The notes under the pieces were generated by a model. It did not search any database and was not told the DNA's origin. It saw nothing but the letters and a program-made list of their open reading frames with translations. Positions 12,815 through 55,442 of a stretch of DNA of 64,000 nucleotides are shown here, piece by piece. Source of the DNA: a virus; IMG/VR virus record IMGVR_UViG_3300045988_167906; one strand, given 5' to 3'. Each line of letters starts with the position of its first letter. Position 1 is the first letter of the stretch. A program made the translations under genes and the position numbers.

Positions 12815-12848
12815 TTTTACCCAGATATTATTTTTATCTGGGTTTTTT
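12815..12848. terminator. bidirectional terminator hairpin acccagatatt...atctgggt with T-run on + and A-run on -
   Basis: Perfect 8-bp stem flanked by oligo-T/oligo-A. It sits exactly at the end of the minus-strand GIY-YIG gene. Confidence 0.55.
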
Positions 12849-13191
12849 ATGTTTCATGATACCTATACGGCTATAATCTACCAGCTATATTTCCAATAGG
12901 CTAATACAATGTAATGAGTGCAAGCTCCATATCCTCTATATCTCTACGTTCTAACTATCTCTCTACTTTTACATCTTTAGTTTTAATCAATGGCTTATAT
13001 TCAACTACATCGCCTTTCTAAATAAGCTTATACACATATAATTCTTTACTATTTGTTCTCAATTTAATCTAATGTTCCTTAAACCGCTTCTCAAAATCCT
13101 ATGTACTACCTATATAATATAAACGCCCATTGACATAAATACCATATACTCCACCTTCAGTCATTTTCTTTAATGCTTTCTTACCCATCAT
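12847..13191 (-). CDS. GIY-YIG nuclease-domain protein (114 aa) containing six in-frame TAG codons
   Basis: Minus-strand translation gives MMGKKALKKMTEGGVYGIYVNGRLYYIGST(Q)DFEKRFKEH(Q)IKL.... This is a clean GIY-YIG motif only when TAG is read as an amino acid. The ORF ends TAA at the terminator. Confidence 0.7.
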
Positions 13192-13284
13192 CTATTCATA
13201 CTCTTCCTATGTGCATACCATATCAAATACCTTATTCTTAAATTCCCAGAATGGTTTATTTAATTTATCCTAATGCGGTCTAAT

Positions 13285-13437
13285 TATCTACATATAGTTA
13301 TTCTATACTACCCATACTCTCTTAAACCCTTTAGCAGAAGGATAATTCTTAATAGGCCCATCTAACTTCTCTATAATCTGTACTAATTCATCGTAATTCT
13401 TTATATTAGCACTAAATCCAAACTTATCAATTTTCAT
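13285..13437 (-). CDS. hypothetical small protein with one in-frame TAG
   Basis: ATG after an RBS. Low confidence. Confidence 0.25.
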
Positions 13438-13529
13438 TTCGTTTTTTCCTTTCAATTTTTGATTTCATTTTTCAATTCATTTCTTTACTGCCACAAGGTC
13501 AATACTGCCATTCAGGAACACACCCCGTT

Positions 13530-16812: not shown

Positions 16813-18222
16813 ATGTATAATGTATATGTTTGTAAAGTAAAAAACATTAGACCTGCGGAGAATGCTAATCGTCTGAATGCCTGTGAAGTATTTGGTATTA
16901 CTACCATTGTTGATAAATCCGTGAATGAAAATGACCTCTACGTCTATTTCCCCACGGATGGTCAAATTAGTGAAGAGTTTGGTAAGGCAAATGACCTCTT
17001 CCGCCGCAAGGATGAGAATGGTAATCCGGCGGGCGGTTTCATTGACCCTGTGAAGCGTAATATTGGTGCAATTCGTCTTCGCGGTAATAAGTCCGAAGGT
17101 CTTATCCTTCCACTTACTTGCCTTACACCTTTTGGTGACATCAGTAATCTGGCCGAAGGTGATATTGTATCTACCTTCAATGGTCATGTAATCGCCGAGA
17201 AGTATGTGCCGATGCATAAGCCCAGAGTTTCAGAGTCTACTGCACGCGGCGAACACAACCATAAGTCTGCAAAGAAATGCCGCATTAAGTATCCATTCTT
17301 CGCAGAACATATTGATACTCCCCAGCTTCGTTTTAATATGGATATGTTTAAGCCGGGCGACATTATCTGCTTGACCGAGAAGGTCCATGGTACCAGTTCT
17401 CGAAACGCATATCAGACTGCAATTGTTGGCGAAAACGGTTTCTTCCTTACCAAGCTTATTGCACATAGCAACTGGCTGCCGAAGAAGTGGCGTATGTCCG
17501 CACAGTCTCACCTTACCCCTAAAACTGAAATGCGTTATCTGATTGGTACTCGCCGCACTGTCCTTACTAACAATAGCACCGGCGGCTTTTATGACAATGA
17601 TGACTTCCGTAAGGCTTGGGGCGAGCGTTTCAAGGGTAAGCTTCTGCCTAATGAGGAATGCTTCGGTGAAATTGCAGGCTTCTACAAAGATAATTATGGC
17701 GGTGCAGTTCCTATCATGTCTCGTGGAGATAATACTAAAACAAAAGATAAGCAATTTATTAAGCAGTATGGTAAGACTACCACTTTCTCTTATGGATGTA
17801 CTGAAACTGGTTATTACACTTATGGTGATGGTACTCATGAAGAAAGACCGCTTAACCGCTATTTTGTTTACCGTATGACTTATACTACTCCTGAAGGTGT
17901 AGTAATTGAATATCCTTGGGACCTTGTTAAGCAGCGTGCAGAACAGATGGGTTTTGAAACTGTGCCTGAACTGGAACGTTTCATCTACACCACTGAAGAG
18001 GATTTCCTCGCACGGATTGCCAAGTATGAGGATATTCCTTCTACGATTGATTCTTCTCATGTAATTGAAGGTGTAGTTATTCGCAAGATGAATGGTACAC
18101 GTTTCGACGTTGCAAAAGATAAATCTTATAATTTTAAGGTACTTGAGAATCTAATTAAGGTTGATGCCGAAGTGCCGGACATGGAAGAAATTGAAGAAGA
18201 AATGACTCTGGAGGATAATTAA
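16813..18222 (+). CDS. ATP-dependent RNA ligase (Rnl2-like nucleotidyltransferase)
   Basis: Motif I LTEKVHGTS (KxHG) as in T4 Rnl2 EKIHGTN, and a large C-terminal domain. No in-frame TAG. Confidence 0.6.
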   Translation: MYNVYVCKVKNIRPAENANRLNACEVFGITTIVDKSVNENDLYVYFPTDGQISEEFGKANDLFRRKDENGNPAGGFIDPVKRNIGAIRLRGNKSEGLILPLTCLTPFGDISNLAEGDIVSTFNGHVIAEKYVPMHKPRVSESTARGEHNHKSAKKCRIKYPFFAEHIDTPQLRFNMDMFKPGDIICLTEKVHGTSSRNAYQTAIVGENGFFLTKLIAHSNWLPKKWRMSAQSHLTPKTEMRYLIGTRRTVLTNNSTGGFYDNDDFRKAWGERFKGKLLPNEECFGEIAGFYKDNYGGAVPIMSRGDNTKTKDKQFIKQYGKTTTFSYGCTETGYYTYGDGTHEERPLNRYFVYRMTYTTPEGVVIEYPWDLVKQRAEQMGFETVPELERFIYTTEEDFLARIAKYEDIPSTIDSSHVIEGVVIRKMNGTRFDVAKDKSYNFKVLENLIKVDAEVPDMEEIEEEMTLEDN

Positions 18223-18835: not shown

Positions 18836-19168
18836 ATGAAGTATGTTGCTTATGATTATTTTGATAATTTCTATCCTGGCATTCTTGGTATTTGCAATAC
18901 CGAAGCTGATGTGCAGGAACTGATTCTTGCCGCCGCCGAAGAAGAAGCATATAGGGCATTCCTTGATGATTATTATTATGATGAAACTGGATTTACAGTA
19001 GAACCTGGTGAAAACCCTATGGAAGTTTATCTCAATGATAAAATTCTTGACTGGAAAGAGTATAATAAATTTAGATTTCCATTTGATGATAAAAATATTT
19101 CTTTCTATGGTTGGACTCTTCTTATGGCTAGTGAATATTATAACTATTCTATCGGAGAGGAGTATTAA
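18836..19168 (+). CDS. tandem paralog 1 of 3 (MKY... acidic small proteins)
   Basis: Shares N-terminal MKY(x)...C(N/D)T(E/R)AD(x)EELILA with the next two genes. Confidence 0.5.
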   Translation: MKYVAYDYFDNFYPGILGICNTEADVQELILAAAEEEAYRAFLDDYYYDETGFTVEPGENPMEVYLNDKILDWKEYNKFRFPFDDKNISFYGWTLLMASEYYNYSIGEEY

Positions 19169-19444
19169 ATGAAATATTTAATTTCTGAAATTGATGATGA
19201 TGCTTGTTGCGAAATCCCTCGATATATTTGCAACACTCGGGCAGACGCCGAAGAACTTATTCTTGCAATAACTGAAGAAGATGTATATAATCAAGCAATG
19301 TACGATGGCGTAGATGATTTCTTTACTTATAGTTTTGCTTTCAGAAGATCCCGCCATCCAGAAGTGAAATGTAAAACTCATTATGGCACAGCTCTTTGGT
19401 TTATGAGTGGTCGATTTATTATTGAAGAATTAGGAGAATATTAA
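19169..19444 (+). CDS. tandem paralog 2 of 3
   Basis: As for 18836-19168. Confidence 0.5.
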   Translation: MKYLISEIDDDACCEIPRYICNTRADAEELILAITEEDVYNQAMYDGVDDFFTYSFAFRRSRHPEVKCKTHYGTALWFMSGRFIIEELGEY

Positions 19445-19720
19445 ATGAAATATATTGTTTGGAATAGCTGTAATGATGATTTAATTTGCTGTGATAACCG
19501 AATTTCTGCCGAAGAACTTGTTCTATCTATCGCCGAGGAAGAAGCATTTATCGAATATAATTATGGCATTAACAAACTTGATGATGCCGATACTCTTGAA
19601 GAATATACAGATACATTACGTGATTGGTGGAAGAAATATCAATGTAGTAATGAATGCATTGCTCTTTTCTTTGGCGGAATTAATTACTACATTAGAGCTA
19701 TTCCAAGTTTGGAGGATTAA
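19445..19720 (+). CDS. tandem paralog 3 of 3
   Basis: As for 18836-19168. Confidence 0.5.
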   Translation: MKYIVWNSCNDDLICCDNRISAEELVLSIAEEEAFIEYNYGINKLDDADTLEEYTDTLRDWWKKYQCSNECIALFFGGINYYIRAIPSLED

Positions 19721-44079: not shown

Positions 44080-44361
44080 ATGAAGAAGATTATAATTCCT
44101 CAAGAAGAAGTAAATTATCTTTAGAAATTAAATTATGAAATTGAAGCTAGAAAAAATTTATGTCAATTTTTAATTAGACAAAATATTAGAAATAAAGCTT
44201 TTGATGATTATCATAATGAGTATATAGAATTATTTGCTGAATATGAATTAGCTAAATTAGAATTAGAAAATAATTATATTAAACCAGTAATTGGAAATCA
44301 AACTTGTAATTGGAATTTAGATTTTTAGACAAACGAGGTAAATATTGATGTTATTTCCTAA
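44080..44361 (+). CDS. small protein (93 aa, two in-frame TAGs) preceding the radical-SAM gene
   Basis: RBS AAAGGAATAAAAATATG. Open to TAA only with TAG as sense. Confidence 0.4.
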
Positions 44362-45688
44362 GATAGTTAATATTCCTGAAGAATTTTCTGATTTTATAAG
44401 TCGTTTATATTCTAATGATTGCTTAAATTCTTAGGCTGTATTTACATTAACTTTTTAGGTTACAGATGATTGTTGTCTAAATTGTGTTTATTGTTATCAA
44501 GGACATAAAGGAAAACATAAATTATCCTTTAATACAGCTAAATAGATGATTGATTAGATACTAACAAGAGACAGTAAAGTTATTAATTATATTGACTCTT
44601 ATAAAATACCAGGAGTAGTAATAGAATTTATAGGTGGAGAGCCATTTTTAGAAATTGAATTAATTGATTAGATTACTGATTATTTTATTAATAAAATGAT
44701 TGAATTGCGGCATCCTTGGGCCACTAAATATAAAATTTCAATTAGTTCTAATGGTATTTTATATTTTGAACCAAAAGTACAAGAGTATATTAAAAAAAAT
44801 AATGAAAATTTAAGTTTATCAATTTCTATTGATGGAAATAAAAAATTACATGATGCTTGTAGAGTTTTCCCTGATGGTAGTGGTAGTTATGATAAAGCAT
44901 TGTCCGCCGCATTACATTATAGCCATAATTATAACAAATGGATCGGGAGTAAAATGACTATCTCTCCATTTAATATAGATTATTTATATGACGCTGTTTT
45001 AGAAATGATAAACAATGGTTATAGTCAAATCAATCTAAATTGTGTGTATGAAAAAGGTTGGGAACTTAACCATGCCACTACATTATATTATTAGTTAAAA
45101 AAAATTGCTGATTATTTATTAAATAATGATTTGTGGGATAAAGTTTATTTATCTATTTTTTATATTAATGATGGAAGTAAAAATTTATCTAATGATAATT
45201 GGTGCGGCGGGAATGGTCGTATGTTAGCCTTAAATTGGAAAGGTAAATATTATCCCTGTTTACGTTATATGGAAGATAGCATAAGTAATCAGCCAGAATA
45301 TTATATTGGAGATATTTATTAGGGAATAGGCCAAGATAATTTAACCATCAATAGATTAAAAGATTTATCTGAAATAACAGTTATTAGTCAATCTCCTCAA
45401 AAATGTTTAGATTGTGAAATTTCTGGAGGATGCTCTTGGTGTACAGCTTATAATTATCAAGAAACAGGTAATGTTAATAAAAGAGTTACTTATATTTGTG
45501 ATATGCATTATGCTATAGTTCTAGCTTCTTTATATTATTTAAATTCTATTTTAAAAAAAATAAACTCGAATAAACGATTTAAATTTAATGGAGATATGGA
45601 AAAAGCATTAAAAATTATCTCTTAGGATGAATATAATATAATAAAGGAGGCAATGACAAATGAAAATAGGCACGACAATAACTTCTGA
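44348..45688 (+). CDS. radical SAM / SPASM-domain peptide-modifying enzyme (anSME/sactisynthase-like) containing eight in-frame TAG codons
   Basis: DDCCLNCVYCYQ (CxxxCxxC), FIGGEPFL (GGE SAM motif), C-terminal CGGNGRMLALNWKGKYYPC...CLDCEISGGCSWC (SPASM). Listed ORFs 44696-45094 and 45131-45322 are two fragments of this single frame. Confidence 0.8.
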
Positions 45689-46310
45689 TAGATTCAATGA
45701 ATTAAAGAAAAAAATAAAGGCTGAATGTTTACGTCGTAAATATATAGGTAGTGTAAGTTCATATGGAGGGACTTCTTATGATTATACTACTTAGCCTAAT
45801 AATGGAAAAGTTATTTCAAAAGAACATATAACAAAACTGGTAGAACCTATGGCGGCAATAAATATTGAAAATCAGAATGAAAATATAAATGTTATTAAAG
45901 ATGATGATTTAAGTACATTAGAGGCAAAAATTACAGCTTATCAAGCTATGGGATTAACTGATTCGAATACTGGATGTTCAGCTTATTGCACTGGATTATG
46001 TTCTACTAGTTGTAGTGAAAGTTGTGGAGTACAATGTCAGGGAACTTGTTTAGGCAGTTGTAAGAATACTTGCCAAGGAGGCTGCCAAAACACTTGCAGA
46101 GGCGGATGTCGAAGCAGTTGTAGTGGCAGTTGTGATGGATGCAGTGGTTCTTGCTCAGGTGGATGCCAGACTGGGTGTAGCGGATGCAGCGGTAGCTGTA
46201 CAAGACATTGTGCTAACGATTGTACTGGATTGTGTGGAGGAAGTTGTTCTGGATTATGCACAAGTTGTACTGGCACATGTAGTGGAACTGGTAGGAATGA
46301 ACCATTATAA
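45660..46310 (+). CDS. RiPP-like precursor: ~105-aa leader plus ~110-aa core of 35 cysteines in (C-x3)/(C-x2) repeats; one in-frame TAG
   Basis: AGGAGG RBS then ATG 45660, in frame (through TAG 45792) with listed ORF 45849-46310. Core is CSAYCTGLCSTSCSESCGVQCQGTCLGSCKNTC..., ends TAA. Confidence 0.65.
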
Positions 46311-46998: not shown

Positions 46999-47267
46999 TA
47001 AAAATTAATATATAATATATATACAAAATAAAGAAAATAAAGACTTTAACAGCAAAGAAATGGACAGTAAATCCGTCGCGAATGCTACGCAGGTTCGAAT
47101 CCTGCCCTCCCCACCACTATATGGCGGAGGTAGGGAAGCGGTTAAACCCAGCGGAACCAAACCAAATAAGTCTTGTTTGAATAAAATAATTATTTGATTT
47201 TTAATAAAAAATATTATATAATATTTATATGAAAAGAGAAAGGCTTTTACAGCAACTTAAACTTTTT

Positions 47268-47342
47268 TCCGTGGTCGAATAACTGGATAATTCATCAGAG
47301 TTAATTCTGAAAATAAGGATTCAAATTCCTTCCTTGGAGCCA
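47268..47342 (+). tRNA. tRNA-like gene with non-canonical 6-8 nt anticodon loop centred on TTAA; CCA encoded
   Basis: Acceptor tccgtgg/ccttgga (6 of 7), D stem gaat/attc, anticodon stem tcaga/tctga with loop gttaat, T arm aagga-ttcaaat-tcctt, discriminator G plus CCA. Late promoter directly upstream. Confidence 0.4.
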
Positions 47343-47433: not shown

Positions 47434-47582
47434 GCTCTCGTAGCTCAATTGGTCAGAGCCGGCGACTTATCCAAAATTAGTTTAAATGGTAAAATAGTTT
47501 ATGCGCAAGAAAGATGTAAGTTCAAATCTAACATTTTGGGCCAAATCGCCAGATGTGGGTTCAAATCCCGACGGGAGCACCA
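47434..47582 (+). tRNA. tRNA interrupted by a ~78-nt insertion after the anticodon loop; the insertion itself has tRNA-like ends (ccaaaat...attttgg-g-cca, 47471-47543)
   Basis: Outer acceptor gctctcg/cgggagc plus A plus CCA, D arm gctc-aattggtca-gagc, anticodon stem ggcga/tcgcc split by the insert, T arm with ttcaaat. Confidence 0.4.
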
Positions 47583-49900: not shown

Positions 49901-49947
49901 AATGAATAATTTTTAATTTCTAATATATTATGAAAGGAGAGATTGTT

Positions 49948-50760
49948 ATGGCTCGTTCAGATATTTTAGAAAAAGAAAAAGAAATTCGTTAGTGGATAAA
50001 CGAAGAAAAATCTAAACGTTATATATGTGAATAGTTGCATTGTAAACCTGAAACTTTAAATTCTTATTTGGAGAAAATGAATATTGAATATAAGGGATAG
50101 CCTTATAAAAAAGGATAGAATAAAAATCCTCGATGTTATAAGCCAGCTATTTATTATATTGATAATCATAAGTATATTAGCTCTTCTGTTTTAAGACAAA
50201 AATTAGTAAAAGATGGATTGAAAAAAGACAAATGTGAAATTTGTGGTATTTCTATGTGGCAAGGAATTAAATTACCTTTAGAATTACATCATAAAAATGG
50301 AAACCATTTTGATAATGATTTAAATAATCTACAAATTTTATGTCCTAATTGTCATTCAATTCAAAATGGAAATAGTGGAGCAAATATCGGTAAATACGCG
50401 GGATTGCTGGAATAGGTAGACAACTCATCTTTAGACGGTGAGGCCGACAGGTGTGAGGGTCCGAGTCCCTCATCCCGCACCAATCATATTCAAAAGAAAA
50501 ATTATTGTTGTGATTGTGGAAAAGAGATATGTTTAAAAGCTATTAGATGTAAATCTTGTGCATCTAAATTTAGACAAAATTCTAAATCTCCAGATAGAGA
50601 AATTTTAAAAGAATTAATTAGAACTACACCATTTGTAACTATAGGGAAAATGTATGAAGTTTCTGATAATGCTGTCAGAAAATGGTGTAAAAATTATGAT
50701 TTACCTTATTAGTCATTAAAAATTAAAAAAATTTCTGATGAAGATTGGAAAAATATTTAA
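49948..50760 (+). CDS. HNH homing endonuclease with N- and C-terminal HTH-like domains; six in-frame TAGs
   Basis: CEICG...ELHHKNGNHFDNDLNNLQILCPNCH is an HNH motif. A single 813-nt frame runs from the AAAGGAG RBS through six TAGs to TAA. Listed ORF 50218-50415 is an internal fragment. Confidence 0.65.
50398..50482 (+). other. tRNA-like element (gcgggat...atcccgc-A-CCA, T arm gaggg-tccgagt-ccctc) embedded in frame inside the HNH ORF
   Basis: A 7-bp perfect acceptor pairing, T arm and CCA are all present. D and anticodon arms do not fold. Confidence 0.3.
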
Positions 50761-50772
50761 TATATAAGGTGT

Positions 50773-50800
50773 GAAGGTTCGAATCCTTTCACCGGTACCA
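50773..50800 (+). pseudogene. 3' tRNA fragment (T arm gaagg-ttcgaat-ccttt, acceptor caccggt, A, CCA) immediately after the HNH gene
   Basis: See 49836-49900. Confidence 0.4.
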
Positions 50801-51293
50801 ACAGTGAAGTAGTAGCTATACTCATTATAATCAAGGCTCGGTGGTTGGTGGCTCCATCGTTATGTAAATAAGCCATATGTATATTACTTCTTGGTGTAAT
50901 GGAAGCATACTGCCTGAAAGAGGCGGAGGTATTGGTTCGATCCCGATAGAAGGAGTAATTAAAGCTAGGAAATGATAATCGCCTAAATAAATAAAGGATT
51001 ATTATTAAAGGTTATTTAGATTAAGGAAGCGGTTGAAGTTATTACTTACTTGATTATAAAATAACATGACCGCAAGACGAGTGTTTGAAGCTTGTCTATA
51101 AACAAATTCTTCATATGTTGTCTTTTTATACTTTCTCTTTGGTTGTTTCTTGACATATAAGTAAAAACGGAAAGGGAGTTAAAGGTTTAGCTATAAAACC
51201 GGTTTGTTTTTAATAAGATTTTTAAAATTAGGTGACAAAATCTTATTTGAGTGACGCTGCTCAGGAGGGTCCGGAACCTCTGAAATGCGATAT

Positions 51294-51740: not shown

Positions 51741-51817
51741 GCGGGATTAGCTCAGCTGGTTAGAGCGTTTGGTTTACACCCAAGAGGTCATTGGTTCAAA
51801 TCCAATATTCCGCACCA
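51741..51817 (+). tRNA. tRNA-Val (TAC) copy 1
   Basis: gcgggat/attccgc, loop ttTACac, T arm attgg-ttcaaat-ccaat, CCA encoded. Confidence 0.85.
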
Positions 51818-51820
51818 TAA

Positions 51821-51858
51821 GCAGGGCAACGCGGGTTCGATCCCCGCCTGGCGCACCA
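51821..51858 (+). other. tRNA 3'-half-like element (T arm gcggg-ttcgatc-cccgc, acceptor ctggcgc, A, CCA) with no matching 5' half
   Basis: Directly abuts tRNA-Val copy 1. Confidence 0.4.
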
Positions 51859-52064: not shown

Positions 52065-52141
52065 GCGGGATTAGCTCAGTTGGTTAGAGCGTTTGGTTTA
52101 CACCCAAGAGGTCATTGGTTCGAATCCAATATCCTGCACCA
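52065..52141 (+). tRNA. tRNA-Val (TAC) copy 2
   Basis: Near-identical to copy 1 (three substitutions). Confidence 0.85.
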
Positions 52142-52451: not shown

Positions 52452-52535
52452 GAGATACAAATTCTACAACCTTCACGCGGTGTATCTTGTTTTAACTAAT
52501 GTAGAATAAAGTAAATAAAAAGGAGCTGTTTAATT

Positions 52536-53250: not shown

Positions 53251-53282
53251 TTCGTTTTCTCGATATAAGCGATTTTGTTACA

Positions 53283-53345
53283 TAGAACTTGATAGAGCGT
53301 TCTATTAATCTGGTTAGATTAAGTTTTATAACTATCATATTTGGG
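53283..53345 (+). repeat. ~65-bp double-hairpin element (tagaac...gttcta; ttaatct...agattaa), repeated at 54432-54510
   Basis: Two near-identical copies, each immediately upstream of a tRNA. Confidence 0.5.
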
Positions 53346-53418
53346 GCACGGGACTGCATGGAGTGGTCGTCTCCCTTGCAAGGAGAAAAGCAGATGAGTT
53401 CGATTCTCATGTGTTCCA
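53343..53418 (+). tRNA. tRNA-Ala (TGC), with G3:U70
   Basis: ggggcac/gtgttcc gives a G3:U70 pair, anticodon arm tctcc-ctTGCaa-ggaga, T arm atgag-ttcgatt-ctcat. No CCA. Confidence 0.55.
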
Positions 53419-53557
53419 GTCATCTAAGATCCACAACCGCCACGAGGTAGATGATGGGTAATGCTAATAGTGGACAAAAATAAAAATCGGGCAAAGTTAA
53501 TTAAACTCCTCAAAAATTTTGCTAAATATAATAGAAGGAAAAAAGGAGTTGAATTAA

Positions 53558-54190
53558 ATGCCTAGAAAATTAACTCAAGAAGAATTTGAACAAAGAGTTT
53601 ATAAATGTGTAGGGGATAAATATTTTGTTATAAGTGAATATAAAGGAAAATCTAAACCAATAGATTTAAAATGCAATATTCATGATATTGTTTTTCAAGC
53701 ATCCGCAGAATGTTTTATGCGAGGTCCAAAAGAAGTAAGATGCTCTTGCCCTAAATGTTCAGAAGAAAAGAAAAATGAAAAATTTTCTGCAAATAGAACT
53801 GAATTAGAATGTGCTTATTGTGGAAAGAAATTTATTCGTCCAAATTCTAAATTGAATAATTCAAAAAGTGGAATATATTTTTGCTGTAGAGAACATAAAG
53901 ATTTAGCTCAACGGATAGAGTTTGGTTTGAAAGAAATTCAACCAAATCATTATGGAAATAATATTGAAAGTATATATACTTATCGTAAAAATGCTTTTAA
54001 ATATTATCCTCATAAATGTGCTATCTGTGGTTGGGATGAAGATAAAGATATTTTAGAAGTTCATCATATTAATGAAAATAGAGAACACAATGAATTAGAG
54101 AATTTAATCATATTATGTCCTATTTGTCATAAAAAATTAACTTCTCATAAATATAAATTAATTAATAGGGAAAAAATTATTTCTTATTAA
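53558..54190 (+). CDS. HNH homing endonuclease
   Basis: C-terminal CAICGWDEDKDILEVHHINENREHNELENLIILCPICH. Confidence 0.7.
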   Translation: MPRKLTQEEFEQRVYKCVGDKYFVISEYKGKSKPIDLKCNIHDIVFQASAECFMRGPKEVRCSCPKCSEEKKNEKFSANRTELECAYCGKKFIRPNSKLNNSKSGIYFCCREHKDLAQRIEFGLKEIQPNHYGNNIESIYTYRKNAFKYYPHKCAICGWDEDKDILEVHHINENREHNELENLIILCPICHKKLTSHKYKLINREKIISY

Positions 54191-54213: not shown

Positions 54214-54256
54214 GGAGCTTGAGGCAAAGCGAGTTCGACTCTCGCAAGTTCCACCA
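54214..54256 (+). other. tRNA minihelix (acceptor ggagctt/aagttcc, T arm gcgag-ttcgact-ctcgc, A, CCA) lacking D and anticodon arms
   Basis: 43 nt. Folds as an acceptor/T coaxial stack only. Confidence 0.4.
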
Positions 54257-54404: not shown

Positions 54405-54508
54405 CCGCACTCGCGGAAAACATACAACTCAACTGGTGCATAGAACTTGATGGAGCGTTCTATTAGTCTGATGCCTGCATTAGATTAAGTTTTATAACCA
54501 TCATATTT

Positions 54509-54582
54509 GGGGACATAGTTTATGGTAGGAAAACGTTGAATTTAATTCAAAGTCGAGGGTGCGATTCCCTCTGGCTCCACCA
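54509..54582 (+). tRNA. type-I tRNA with anticodon loop aT-TTA-At (anticodon UUA); nonsense-suppressor candidate
   Basis: Acceptor ggggaca/tggctcc (6 of 7), D arm gttt-atggtagga-aaac, anticodon stem tga(a)/(t)tca, T arm gaggg-tgcgatt-ccctc, discriminator A, CCA encoded. Confidence 0.5.
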
Positions 54583-54716
54583 TTTATGAAAGACAATACA
54601 GCAATTATAAATTTGCTTTGGGAGCCGTGTGTTGTAGGTTCGAGTCCTACTGTCTGGTTGAAGATCGGATATAGCGTAATTGGTAGCGCAACGTATAAAA
54701 ATTGTCTTGTTAATAT

Positions 54717-54792: not shown

Positions 54793-54916
54793 TATGAAAA
54801 GCCCACACAGCAATTTTTAATAAGGTTAAATAAGAAATTCTGCAAAAATTTTTTAGAGTTGGTTCAAATCCAGCAAATGATTTTAGGGCTTTGTTAAAAT
54901 TGTTAAGGAGAAAATA

Positions 54917-55261: not shown

Positions 55262-55348
55262 GGAGTCGTGGGATAATGGTATTCCAATGGATTGCTAATC
55301 CATCCTACCTCTTGGGTAGTCCGCGTTCGAGTCGCGGCGATTCCGCCA
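55262..55348 (+). tRNA. tRNA-Ser (GCT), type II
   Basis: ggagtcg/cgattcc, 3-bp D stem, loop ttGCTaa, long variable arm ctacc-tctt-gggtag, T arm ccgcg-ttcgagt-cgcgg, CCA encoded. Confidence 0.8.
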
Positions 55349-55354
55349 TTATAT

Positions 55355-55442
55355 GTAGGAGTGCCAGAGTGGTCGATTGGGTTAGTCTCCAAAACTAATT
55401 GTAGCTGCACATCCAGGGTTCGAATCCCTTGCTCCTATGCCA
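55355..55442 (+). tRNA. type-II tRNA (Ser/Leu-like architecture) with apparent anticodon CCA
   Basis: Acceptor pairing, 3-bp D stem, anticodon arm ttagt-ctCCAaa-actaa, ~15-nt variable arm, T arm with ttcgaat, CCA present. Confidence 0.5.

Follow-up and report, generated by a model that had tools for sequence, protein, structure and literature searches.

How does a phage read the stop codon TAG as an amino acid when none of the transfer RNA (tRNA) genes at hand carries the matching CUA anticodon? This question is raised by a stretch of gut-phage DNA of 64,000 nucleotides (nt; IMG/VR record IMGVR_UViG_3300045988_167906; G+C content ∼25-42%), hereafter the window, for which a preliminary description had proposed two tRNA-like genes with TTAA-centred loops as possible decoders. 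Here we examine both genes and concentrate on the first, a non-canonical tRNA gene with a UUA anticodon that occupies positions 54509-54582 of the plus strand, is recognised by the Rfam tRNA model and encodes its own CCA end up to position 54582 (tRNA 54509). We conclude that tRNA 54509 is not what makes TAG a sense codon and that TAG in this genome type is served by a canonical glutamine-type tRNA(CUA) encoded in a second tRNA cluster. What tRNA 54509 may do instead is considered afterwards.

Codon usage and tRNA content of the window

When TAG is read as sense, gene fragments of the window join into long open reading frames (ORFs) and homology runs through the TAGs. The ORF of a radical-SAM peptide maturase (44342-45688) contains 8 in-frame TAGs with homology continuous through them, the gene of a GIY-YIG protein on the minus strand (12847-13464) contains 11, and tail-fibre genes are joined likewise. 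In a set of 79 non-overlapping ORFs, 95 in-frame TAG codons were distributed over 38 ORFs, and the stops were TAA in 56 cases and TGA in 23. Both initial observations, that TAG is decoded as sense and that TAA is used as a stop, were thus borne out. Comparison of the maturase with 120 homologs showed glutamine (Q) at TAG column 66 in 118 of them and at TAG column 137 in 81, with column 280 divided between glutamate (66) and glutamine (51). This match between TAG columns and glutamine shows that TAG is glutamine in the window phage. No in-frame TAA or TGA was found opposite a sense codon in genuine protein alignments from about 25 related loci. TAA was also considered as a sense codon and rejected, the apparent TAA-to-sense alignments all falling in spurious ORFs of the non-coding array or at alignment edges.

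ARAGORN with default settings predicted 14 tRNAs between 49.5 and 55.4 kilobases (kb), and Rfam added two more, 54509-54579 and an interrupted gene at 47434-47579. As previously described, no tRNA with a CUA anticodon was present in the window, whether ARAGORN was run by default, with introns allowed or in relaxed mode, or Rfam was used. A megablast search with 24 kb against GenBank phages gave no match, and a protein search for annotated relatives returned distant MetK homologs only.

A canonical tRNA(CUA) lies beyond the window in sibling genomes

The preliminary description had left room for a decoder outside the window. By walking outward through IMG/VR contigs, we reached a second tRNA cluster on contig IMGVR_UViG_3300045988_164919 (locus L159), with the gene order Thr(UGU)-Pro(UGG)-Gln(UUG)-Tyr(GUA)-ROOL RNA-Sup(CUA), where Sup stands for suppressor. 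The tRNA(CUA) gene (L159:19550-19624) scores 49.2 bits with the Rfam tRNA model and has an anticodon stem of 5 base pairs (bp), the loop CUCUAAA, a U1·U72 mismatch, G73 and an encoded CCA. An exact scan with its anticodon arm retrieved three IMG/VR contigs (164919, 152007 and 3300029858_000001), all of which also carry tRNA 54509: in 152007 and 164919 the gene is identical, and 3300029858_000001 has it fused to tRNA-Met as a chimera. The only other IMG/VR contig with tRNA 54509, 169451, gave no match in this exact scan of the tRNA(CUA) arm. On contig 164919 the distance from tRNA 54509 to Sup(CUA), calculated from the fetched ranges, is ∼27 kb, which places Sup(CUA) ∼17-20 kb past the right end of the window. 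Three siblings thus carry a canonical Sup(CUA) at a place that supports the suggested location of the decoder, and we infer by synteny that the window genome has its own.

The tRNA(CUA) is also found in more distant relatives. In sister clades, the array at the locus of tRNA 54509 comprises at least 23 tRNAs, among them an invariable Val-Sup(CUA)-Tyr block. The loop CUCUAAA is common to all 16 distinct CUA tRNAs of the family, nearly all of which combine a mismatched 1·72 pair with G73. Pattern scans with the D arm and 3′ flank of the sister-clade Sup(CUA) gave no match on window-type contigs, where the gene was found by walking. To the left of the window, portal-like and terminase-like genes and no tRNAs were seen up to ∼105 kb of contig 152007, the walk covering all but ∼83 kb of that genome type. 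For the L001 contig and the Hadza lineage, a search for Sup(CUA) through a neighbouring protein returned fragments and more distant relatives only, and neither L166 nor L167 gave a CUA tRNA call.

Compared with the glutamine-type tRNA-Sup(CUA) of phages using genetic code 15, tRNA 54509 likewise has a stop-cognate anticodon and sits in the tRNA array of a TAG-to-Gln gut phage. The two differ as follows: the former has CUA, a mismatched 1·72 pair with G73 and an anticodon arm of 17 nt, whereas tRNA 54509 has UUA, G1-C72, G3·U70 and A73, an arm of 15 nt, and is dispensable among recoded relatives, being absent from the TAG-recoded loci L001 and L008. The case shows how invoking non-canonical tRNAs for recoded phages in which no suppressor is detected can mislead: an odd candidate inside the window can be real and yet not be the decoder, with an ordinary Sup(CUA) located in a second cluster just outside.

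tRNA 54509 has a shortened anticodon arm

The interval 54509-54579 scores 48.5 bits against the Rfam tRNA model RF00005 (gathering score 29), and the homologs in L003 and L004 reach 52.3 bits; ARAGORN with default settings does not call the gene. The acceptor stem pairs GGGGACA with UGGCUCC, forming G1-C72, G2-C71, G3·U70 and G4-C69 and leaving an A5·G68 mismatch, and is followed by A73 and the encoded CCA. The D arm, preceded by UA, is GUUU-AUGGUAGGA-AAAC and is followed by G26; the variable loop is AGUC, and the T arm is GAGGG-UGCGAUU-CCCUC. The T loop (UGCAAUU in other alleles) has G55 in all alleles and thus departs from the consensus U54-U55-C56-R57-A58.

The anticodon arm, UUGAAUUUAAUUCAA, measures 15 nt instead of the standard 17 and is a perfect palindrome (UUGAA-UUUAA-UUCAA) with TTA at its centre, T (U33) before it and A (A37) after it. 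It cannot form the standard 5-bp stem with a 7-nt loop. The Rfam alignment gives 5 bp and a 5-nt loop; opening the A-U closing pair leaves a stem of 4 bp, flanked by G26·A44, and the 7-nt loop A32-U33-UUA-A37-U38; and free folding yields 6 bp closed by a UUA triloop. The calculated energies of the three forms are -1.0, -0.2 and -1.8 kcal/mol, respectively. Canonical arms that were tested in the same way, including those of the family Sup(CUA), always had their minimum at 5 bp and 7 nt. The gene had initially been described as a well-formed tRNA with a canonical 7-nt loop on a 4-bp stem. It is indeed a real tRNA gene with UUA between U33 and A37, but the short arm, G55, the A5·G68 mismatch and the miss by default ARAGORN do not fit the term well-formed, and the 7-nt loop is a possible form that requires an open A-U closing pair, Rfam favouring 5 bp with 5 nt.

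We also considered a permuted transfer-messenger RNA (tmRNA) at this position, as the Rfam model tmRNA_permuted matched at 23.7 bits over the T arm, the CCA and the downstream sequence GGAGCCG. This candidate was rejected: the complementarity is not kept in L003 and L008 (GGGUGCC), and the downstream part belongs to a separate YrlA-like RNA that is also present where the tRNA is missing.

The acceptor of tRNA 54509 is of the alanine type

Alanyl-tRNA synthetase (AlaRS) identifies its substrates by the set G1-C72, G2-C71, G3·U70, G4-C69 and A73 and does not inspect the anticodon. tRNA 54509 has G3·U70, A73, G2-C71 and G4-C69, and these are kept in all alleles except for one G2·U71. When compared with the 312 distinct tRNAs predicted in all fetched loci, its nearest match was a tRNA-Ala(UGC), which agrees with the L003 allele at ∼27 of 31 positions (counted by hand) over the variable loop, the T arm and the 3′ acceptor strand. 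The window has a tRNA-Ala(UGC) of its own, called by ARAGORN at 53342-53419 on the plus strand, that served as comparator for the alanine-type acceptor; it has no encoded CCA and carries the acceptor GGGGCAC/GUGUUCC with G3·U70 and A73. tRNA-Ala and tRNA 54509 are alike in G1-C72, G2-C71, G3·U70, G4-C69, A73, CCA, T arm, 3′ acceptor strand and upstream leader. They differ in the anticodon, which is UGC or GGC in tRNA-Ala and UUA in tRNA 54509, in the D and anticodon arms, which are unrelated, and in the A5·G68 mismatch of tRNA 54509. On these features, tRNA 54509 is probably alanine-accepting.

tRNA 54509 is conserved, dispensable and part of a probably mobile cassette

Homologs of tRNA 54509 were gathered by exact-pattern scans and locus fetches, which yielded 21 more contigs, 2-214 kb long and derived from human gut samples. 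The resulting 22 contigs contain 7 alleles, one of which is a chimera fused to the 3′ end of a tRNA-Met. In the six intact alleles, 120 of 120 stem cells are paired and two pairs show changes on both sides. Across alleles, pair 4 of the anticodon stem runs through A-U, G·U and G-C, and pair 1 of the T stem through G-C, G·U and A-U. The loop UUUAA, the closing A-U pair, G3·U70 and A5·G68 are invariant, and outside the stems substitutions are confined to the D loop and to positions 26 and 57, the latter in the T loop. This allele pattern fits selection on the cloverleaf, short of proof.

Conservation goes together with dispensability. With both flanks intact, tRNA 54509 is cleanly absent from L008 and from L001, the closest relative (97% identity in the maturase), whose maturase gene has 8 in-frame TAGs; L011 holds a chimeric, broken copy. 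Directly upstream of the gene lies a conserved leader element (54405-54508, plus strand) made of a hairpin CCGC-ACUC-GCGG, then AUAGAAC...GUUCUAU, then UAGUCUGAUGC/GCAUUAGAUUA, and ending in ...TTTTATAACCATCATATTT. A second leader copy precedes the window tRNA-Ala(UGC), with the 27-nt core used in the search at 53281-53307; this core pattern occurs twice in the window, with 0 occurrences expected. The leader is near-identical in L001, L003, L004, L008 and L068 and, ∼100 nt long, also stands upstream of the tRNA-Ala of L001. Between lineages, the leader-plus-tRNA cassette is ∼90-100% identical, while the proteins are only ∼65% identical. Taken together, we read tRNA 54509 as a genuine, selectively maintained but dispensable accessory tRNA within a leader-plus-tRNA cassette that is probably mobile.

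What tRNA 54509 may do

Our favoured reading, to which we assign about half of our belief, is that tRNA 54509 is an alanine-type accessory tRNA and at most a weak suppressor of UAA and UAG. Its RNA would be processed from the array and aminoacylated by an AlaRS blind to the anticodon, and it could then pair with UAA, and through U34 wobble with UAG, only inefficiently. Inefficiency would be expected from a stem that lacks one pair, from Watson-Crick A-U pairing between positions 32 and 38, from the ability of the arm to close into 6 bp with a UUA triloop, and from the missing determinants for A37 modification; the usual A37 modifications need an A36-A37-A38 or U36-A37 motif, and tRNA 54509 has neither. 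Such inefficiency would explain why a phage that ends most of its genes in TAA tolerates this tRNA. tRNA 54509 would thus be a weak, non-essential, alanine-inserting ochre/amber suppressor in a mobile cassette, its alanine charging, weak decoding and biological role all being inferred.

Several points weigh against this reading. Some of the Val, Glu and Gly tRNAs that these phages encode have G3·U70 as well, and within the window the second tRNA-Val(UAC), at 52065-52141, has G3·U70 and the first copy, at 51741, has G3-C70; therefore, G3·U70 is not strictly alanine-specific in these phages. Moreover, as known from ochre suppressors, U34-U35 together with A73 could also attract lysyl-tRNA synthetase or glutaminyl-tRNA synthetase (GlnRS). 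With alleles 96% identical, covariation carries little statistical weight: the observed score was reached by 61 of 500 shuffles. The Sup(CUA) gene was seen in sibling genomes, contig 152007 being 88-98% identical to the window, and not in the window's own genome. In addition, activity of a tRNA that matches the principal stop of the phage would be expected to do harm, and we saw no TAA within a reading frame that stood to gain from it. A functional UAA reader should leave in-frame UAA as sense, which the ∼25 loci do not show and which the use of TAA at the end of 56 of 79 ORFs speaks against, low-level read-through still being possible. Finally, G55 and the short arm may make the RNA a poor ribosome substrate, favouring a role outside decoding.

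This last consideration leads to a serious, though less probable, rival explanation, in which the RNA merely mimics a tRNA and does not decode. It would keep the tRNA shape, be cut by RNase P and receive or keep its CCA end, but its anticodon arm would be closed (5-6 bp and a loop of 3-5 nt) and it would never work on the ribosome. A host tRNA-targeting nuclease, AlaRS or an RNA-repair enzyme, for instance, might bind it as a decoy or ligand, or it might serve as processing punctuation of the array, like the YrlA-like mimic located downstream. A minimum-energy state of 6 bp with a UUA triloop, the Rfam preference for 5 bp and 5 nt, a palindrome kept in every allele and the replacement of the near-universal U55 by G55 agree with this explanation, as does an array rich in other non-decoding tRNA-like RNAs (YrlA-like RNAs, a family at 50884 and minihelix-framed inserts, all described below) in a phage with no in-frame TAA that needs decoding. 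However, U33 and a purine at position 37 flank a triplet that is exactly cognate to a stop codon, and the full set of AlaRS determinants and the encoded CCA are conserved beyond the needs of structural punctuation. The energy differences between arm states stay below 2 kcal/mol, and no candidate binding partner was identified.

Alternatively, tRNA 54509 might be a decaying or neutral passenger, composed of the 3′ half of a tRNA-Ala and an AT-rich 5′ half, that spread with the leader through recombination or homing-endonuclease traffic. The presence/absence polymorphism with clean boundaries, the L011 chimera with a tRNA-Met 3′ end and the many tRNA fragments beside HNH and GIY-YIG genes would agree with such traffic, the excess of cassette identity over protein identity suggests recent transfer rather than long-term constraint, and the covariation statistics are weak. 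We nevertheless regard a passenger as unlikely, as the six intact alleles keep every stem pair, the stem substitutions preserve pairing with wobble intermediates included, and the anticodon loop is intact in all alleles except the single chimera.

The initial proposal, that tRNA 54509, alone or with the gene at 47268, decodes TAG through U34·G pairing while charged with glutamine and kept off TAA by modification or context, has in its favour the absence of a CUA tRNA from the window and from the homologous array of its clade, the recognition of U35 by GlnRS, the enhancement of stop reading by short anticodon stems (PMC13092985) and the report by Borges et al. (10.1101/2021.08.26.457843) that a suppressor tRNA is detectable in only ∼40% of TAG-recoded phages, with non-canonical tRNAs suggested to be missed, but it is now largely refuted and very improbable, since a canonical glutamine-type tRNA(CUA) coexists in siblings, tRNA 54509 is absent from the TAG-recoded L001 and L008, its strong G1-C72 with A73 is of the alanine type and contrasts with the mismatched 1·72 and G73 of the real Sup(CUA), the TAG columns are Gln and not Ala, and the 47268 gene belongs to a family with an AAA anticodon. 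The preliminary description had named two outcomes that would speak against its own proposal: a canonical Sup(CUA) does exist elsewhere in the genome type, but tRNA 54509 is, judged by its conservation, no pseudogene and does not turn out to be a tRNA-Leu(UAA).

Returning to the favoured alanine-type accessory tRNA, a bolder extension of it would have the phage run two stop-reading tRNAs, the Gln-tRNA(CUA) for TAG and an alanine-charged, short-stem tRNA(UUA) that would provide tunable, low read-through of UAA; we consider this rather unlikely. If true, UAA would be an ambiguous stop, giving rise to C-terminally extended variants or relieving ribosomes that wait at UAA when release factor 1 is outcompeted late in infection. 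It would also represent the first ochre suppressor of the alanine type found in nature and the first viral use of a truly shortened, not merely unpinned, anticodon stem.

Comparison with known short-stem tRNAs and ochre suppressors

In bacteria, tRNAs can work with an anticodon stem of only 4 bp, and such stems favour the reading of stop codons (Fakih et al. 2026, PMC13092985). With these bacterial tRNAs (PMC13092985) and the tRNA-Trp(CCA) of Blastocrithidia and Condylostoma, tRNA 54509 shares four Watson-Crick pairs, a 7-nt loop and a stop-reassigned lineage. In the known cases pair 27-43 is unpinned with its nucleotides present, and the sense anticodon CCA reads a near-cognate stop; in tRNA 54509, by contrast, the arm is physically shorter by two nucleotides, the anticodon matches UAA in full and there is no link to the reassigned codon. 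As the class is defined (Kachale 2023; Fakih 2026; definition taken from PMC13092985), tRNA 54509 falls outside it, having a 15-nt arm in which G26·A44 flanks a true 4-bp stem.

The UUA anticodon is shared with the ochre suppressors supB, supC and supG of E. coli and with the phage tRNA-Sup-TTA of Klebsiella phage phiKp24 (PMC8386662), in which, as in the window phage, TAA is still the main stop. Putative Sup-TTA tRNAs have been annotated in standard-code phages (PMC8386662). Classical ochre suppressors arose by one-base changes in the anticodon of Gln, Tyr or Lys tRNAs and have normal arms, whereas tRNA 54509 has an alanine-type acceptor, a shortened arm and a natural, conserved allele series. 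In this series, the AlaRS identity set occurs together with an anticodon that matches a stop codon and a stem that is physically shorter than usual, so that it would suit tests of what stem length, the pair 32-38 and charging independent of the anticodon contribute to stop reading; it might also offer a scaffold for engineered suppressors.

The second TTAA-loop gene and other candidate decoders

The tRNA-like gene at 47268-47342 (plus strand) has U1-A72, G73, CCA and the stem UCAGA/UCUGA closing the 6-nt loop GUUAAU, in agreement with the loop of 6 nt, or 8 nt on a 4-bp stem, given for it initially. In an alignment with L001, L003, L004 and L008, its acceptor, D and T stems covary and the UCAGA/UCUGA stem is invariant. 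The orthologs have the 7-nt loop GUAAAAU with the anticodon AAA; one loop base has been lost in the window and L001 copies, and the L001 copy is also without CCA. Rfam gave no tRNA match for 47268-47342 even at E ≤ 10, and ARAGORN reports the gene only at -ps80, as a tRNA-??? with a 2-nt anticodon. We considered it as a Gln-type suppressor on account of U1-A72 and G73 and rejected it on the GUAAAAU loop of its orthologs, the loss of CCA in L001 and the silence of Rfam. The gene is a conserved tRNA-like gene, an indel variant of an AAA-anticodon family, and not a stop reader. With an ortholog family of this kind and an alanine-type tRNA 54509 facing TAG codons that match Gln, the claim that the TTAA-loop tRNAs do the decoding is not supported.

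Two further sets of candidates were discarded. The interrupted gene at 47434 was considered as a hidden Sup tRNA and proved to be a tRNA-Ile(UAU), from its loop CUUAU|insert|AA and its positional counterpart in L001. The calls Stop(tta), SeC(tca; selenocysteine) and Gln(ttg) that ARAGORN made with introns allowed resolve to insert-bearing Val(UAC), Glu(UUC), Lys(UUU) and Leu(UAA) genes.

Other elements of the tRNA array

The surrounding array, with its tRNA-framed inserts, YrlA-like mimics, theta-like ribozymes and, in siblings, ROOL RNA, may deserve more attention than tRNA 54509 itself. Immediately downstream of the latter, at 54590-54716 on the plus strand, lies a permuted tRNA-like RNA that matches the Rfam YrlA (Y RNA-like) model at 29.1 bits. 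It consists of a closing helix (AAGACAAU/AUUGUCUU), a hairpin AGCAA/UUGCU, a T arm, a loop-closed acceptor-like hairpin and a D arm, is present with or without tRNA 54509, and is conserved, with covariation, in L001, L003, L008 and Enterococcus phage UTI-EfS3. Similar YrlA-like cassettes with an ACAGCAA hairpin are found at 47040-47175 and 54797-54897 and at L173:2507-2620 and 2329-2436, and every relative keeps such permuted tRNA-like RNAs, with covariation. Over 120 nt, they share 73% identity with unannotated DNA at the end of the tRNA arrays in ∼150-kb Enterococcus phages of the Herelleviridae, among which phage UTI-EfS3 matches the full YrlA model at 45.9 bits, below the gathering score of 69.

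The interrupted tRNA-Ile(UAU) occupies 47434-47582 in the window and is also found at L012:2670-2818 and L068:6564-6715. Its insert (47471-47543) places 73 nt between anticodon-loop nt 36 and 37 (CUUAU|...|AA) and is itself tRNA-shaped, with a 7-bp stem CCAAAAU/AUUUUGG, a D-like arm, a T arm with the loop UUCAAAU, a discriminator G and CCA. One search of the literature gave no description of such an insert. As an idea only, RNase P and a 3′ cut of the insert would leave 3′-OH and 5′-P ends fit for ligation. Four further, unrelated inserts show the same framing by a 5′ acceptor strand, a T arm, a 3′ acceptor strand, any nucleotide and CCA, and sit after anticodon-loop nt 34, 35 or 36. Their hosts are Glu(UUC), with an insert of 58 nt (L003:19633-19768, also in L004-L006, L008 and L023), Ile(UAU), with ∼70 nt (L003:13658-13803), Lys(UUU), with 735 nt (L011:2504-3313 and L022), and Tyr(GUA), with ∼480 nt including an ORF (L158 ∼19112-19700); ARAGORN miscalls such genes as SeC(tca), Gln(ttg) or Stop(tta). 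Together these inserts look like a class of introns or mobile elements of phage tRNA genes framed by a tRNA minihelix.

Seven nt after tRNA-Ser(GCU) (55262-55348) stands a class-II tRNA with the Trp anticodon CCA (55355-55442). It has a long variable arm, a 6-bp anticodon stem and a length of 88 nt, scores 33.8 bits as tRNA and 38.8 bits as tRNA-Sec-like in Rfam, and is conserved in many relatives. A serine-type body with a Trp anticodon would resemble an allo-tRNA and imply identity switching. The tRNA-Val(UAC) at 52065-52141 may have a dual Val/Ala identity. A tRNA-like family represented by 50884-50956, L001:15511-15581 and L003:15009-15079 has a conserved body and loops that are not conserved and have no U33 (UGAAAGA, UGAAGGG and UGGCGUA), which ARAGORN labels Phe(AAA), Leu(AAG) and Arg(GCG) in turn; its members are probably not decoding tRNAs.

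Weak matches to the ribozyme model HDV-F-prausnitzii, below its gathering score, were obtained at 52452-52506 (19.4 bits) and 53419-53486 (24.5 bits), and start exactly at the 3′ ends of the CCA-less tRNAs Glu(UUC) and Ala(UGC). Theta ribozymes adjoin gut-phage tRNAs in the same arrangement (PMC10879173). The ROOL RNA of the second cluster (L159:18064-18657, and also in the tail of L158) lies between tRNA-Tyr and Sup(CUA), ∼16-17 kb past the right end of the window in siblings, and matches Rfam RF03087 over its full length at 320 bits.

Orphan tRNA 3′ fragments, with a T arm, an acceptor strand and CCA, lie at ∼50765-50802, 51818-51858 and 54214-54256, beside homing-endonuclease genes; HNH ORFs are located at 49924-50760 and 53558-54190. 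The fragment at 54214-54256 is the 3′ end of an L001-type tRNA-Ala displaced by the diverged tRNA-Ala at 53342-53419 together with an HNH gene, which suggests endonuclease-driven turnover of tRNA genes in the array.

Among the other genes, the window encodes an RNA ligase (16813-18222), a MetK/PhoH-like protein, tail fibres and the HNH endonucleases within the tRNA array. The radical-SAM maturase (region 44342-46310) belongs to the CXXX-repeat target family and is followed by a predicted CXXX-repeat substrate gene; in L001, the substrate gene of the maturase is assigned to Pfam tSAM_targ_Cxxx_rpt. Maturase and substrate would form an auxiliary system resembling those of ribosomally synthesised and post-translationally modified peptides, expressed only in the recoded state. 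Finally, L166 (5111-5485) and L167 contain a class-II tRNA-Leu(UAA) with an intron of ∼286 nt in the anticodon loop, at a position reminiscent of the group I intron of cyanobacterial and plastid tRNA-Leu(UAA).

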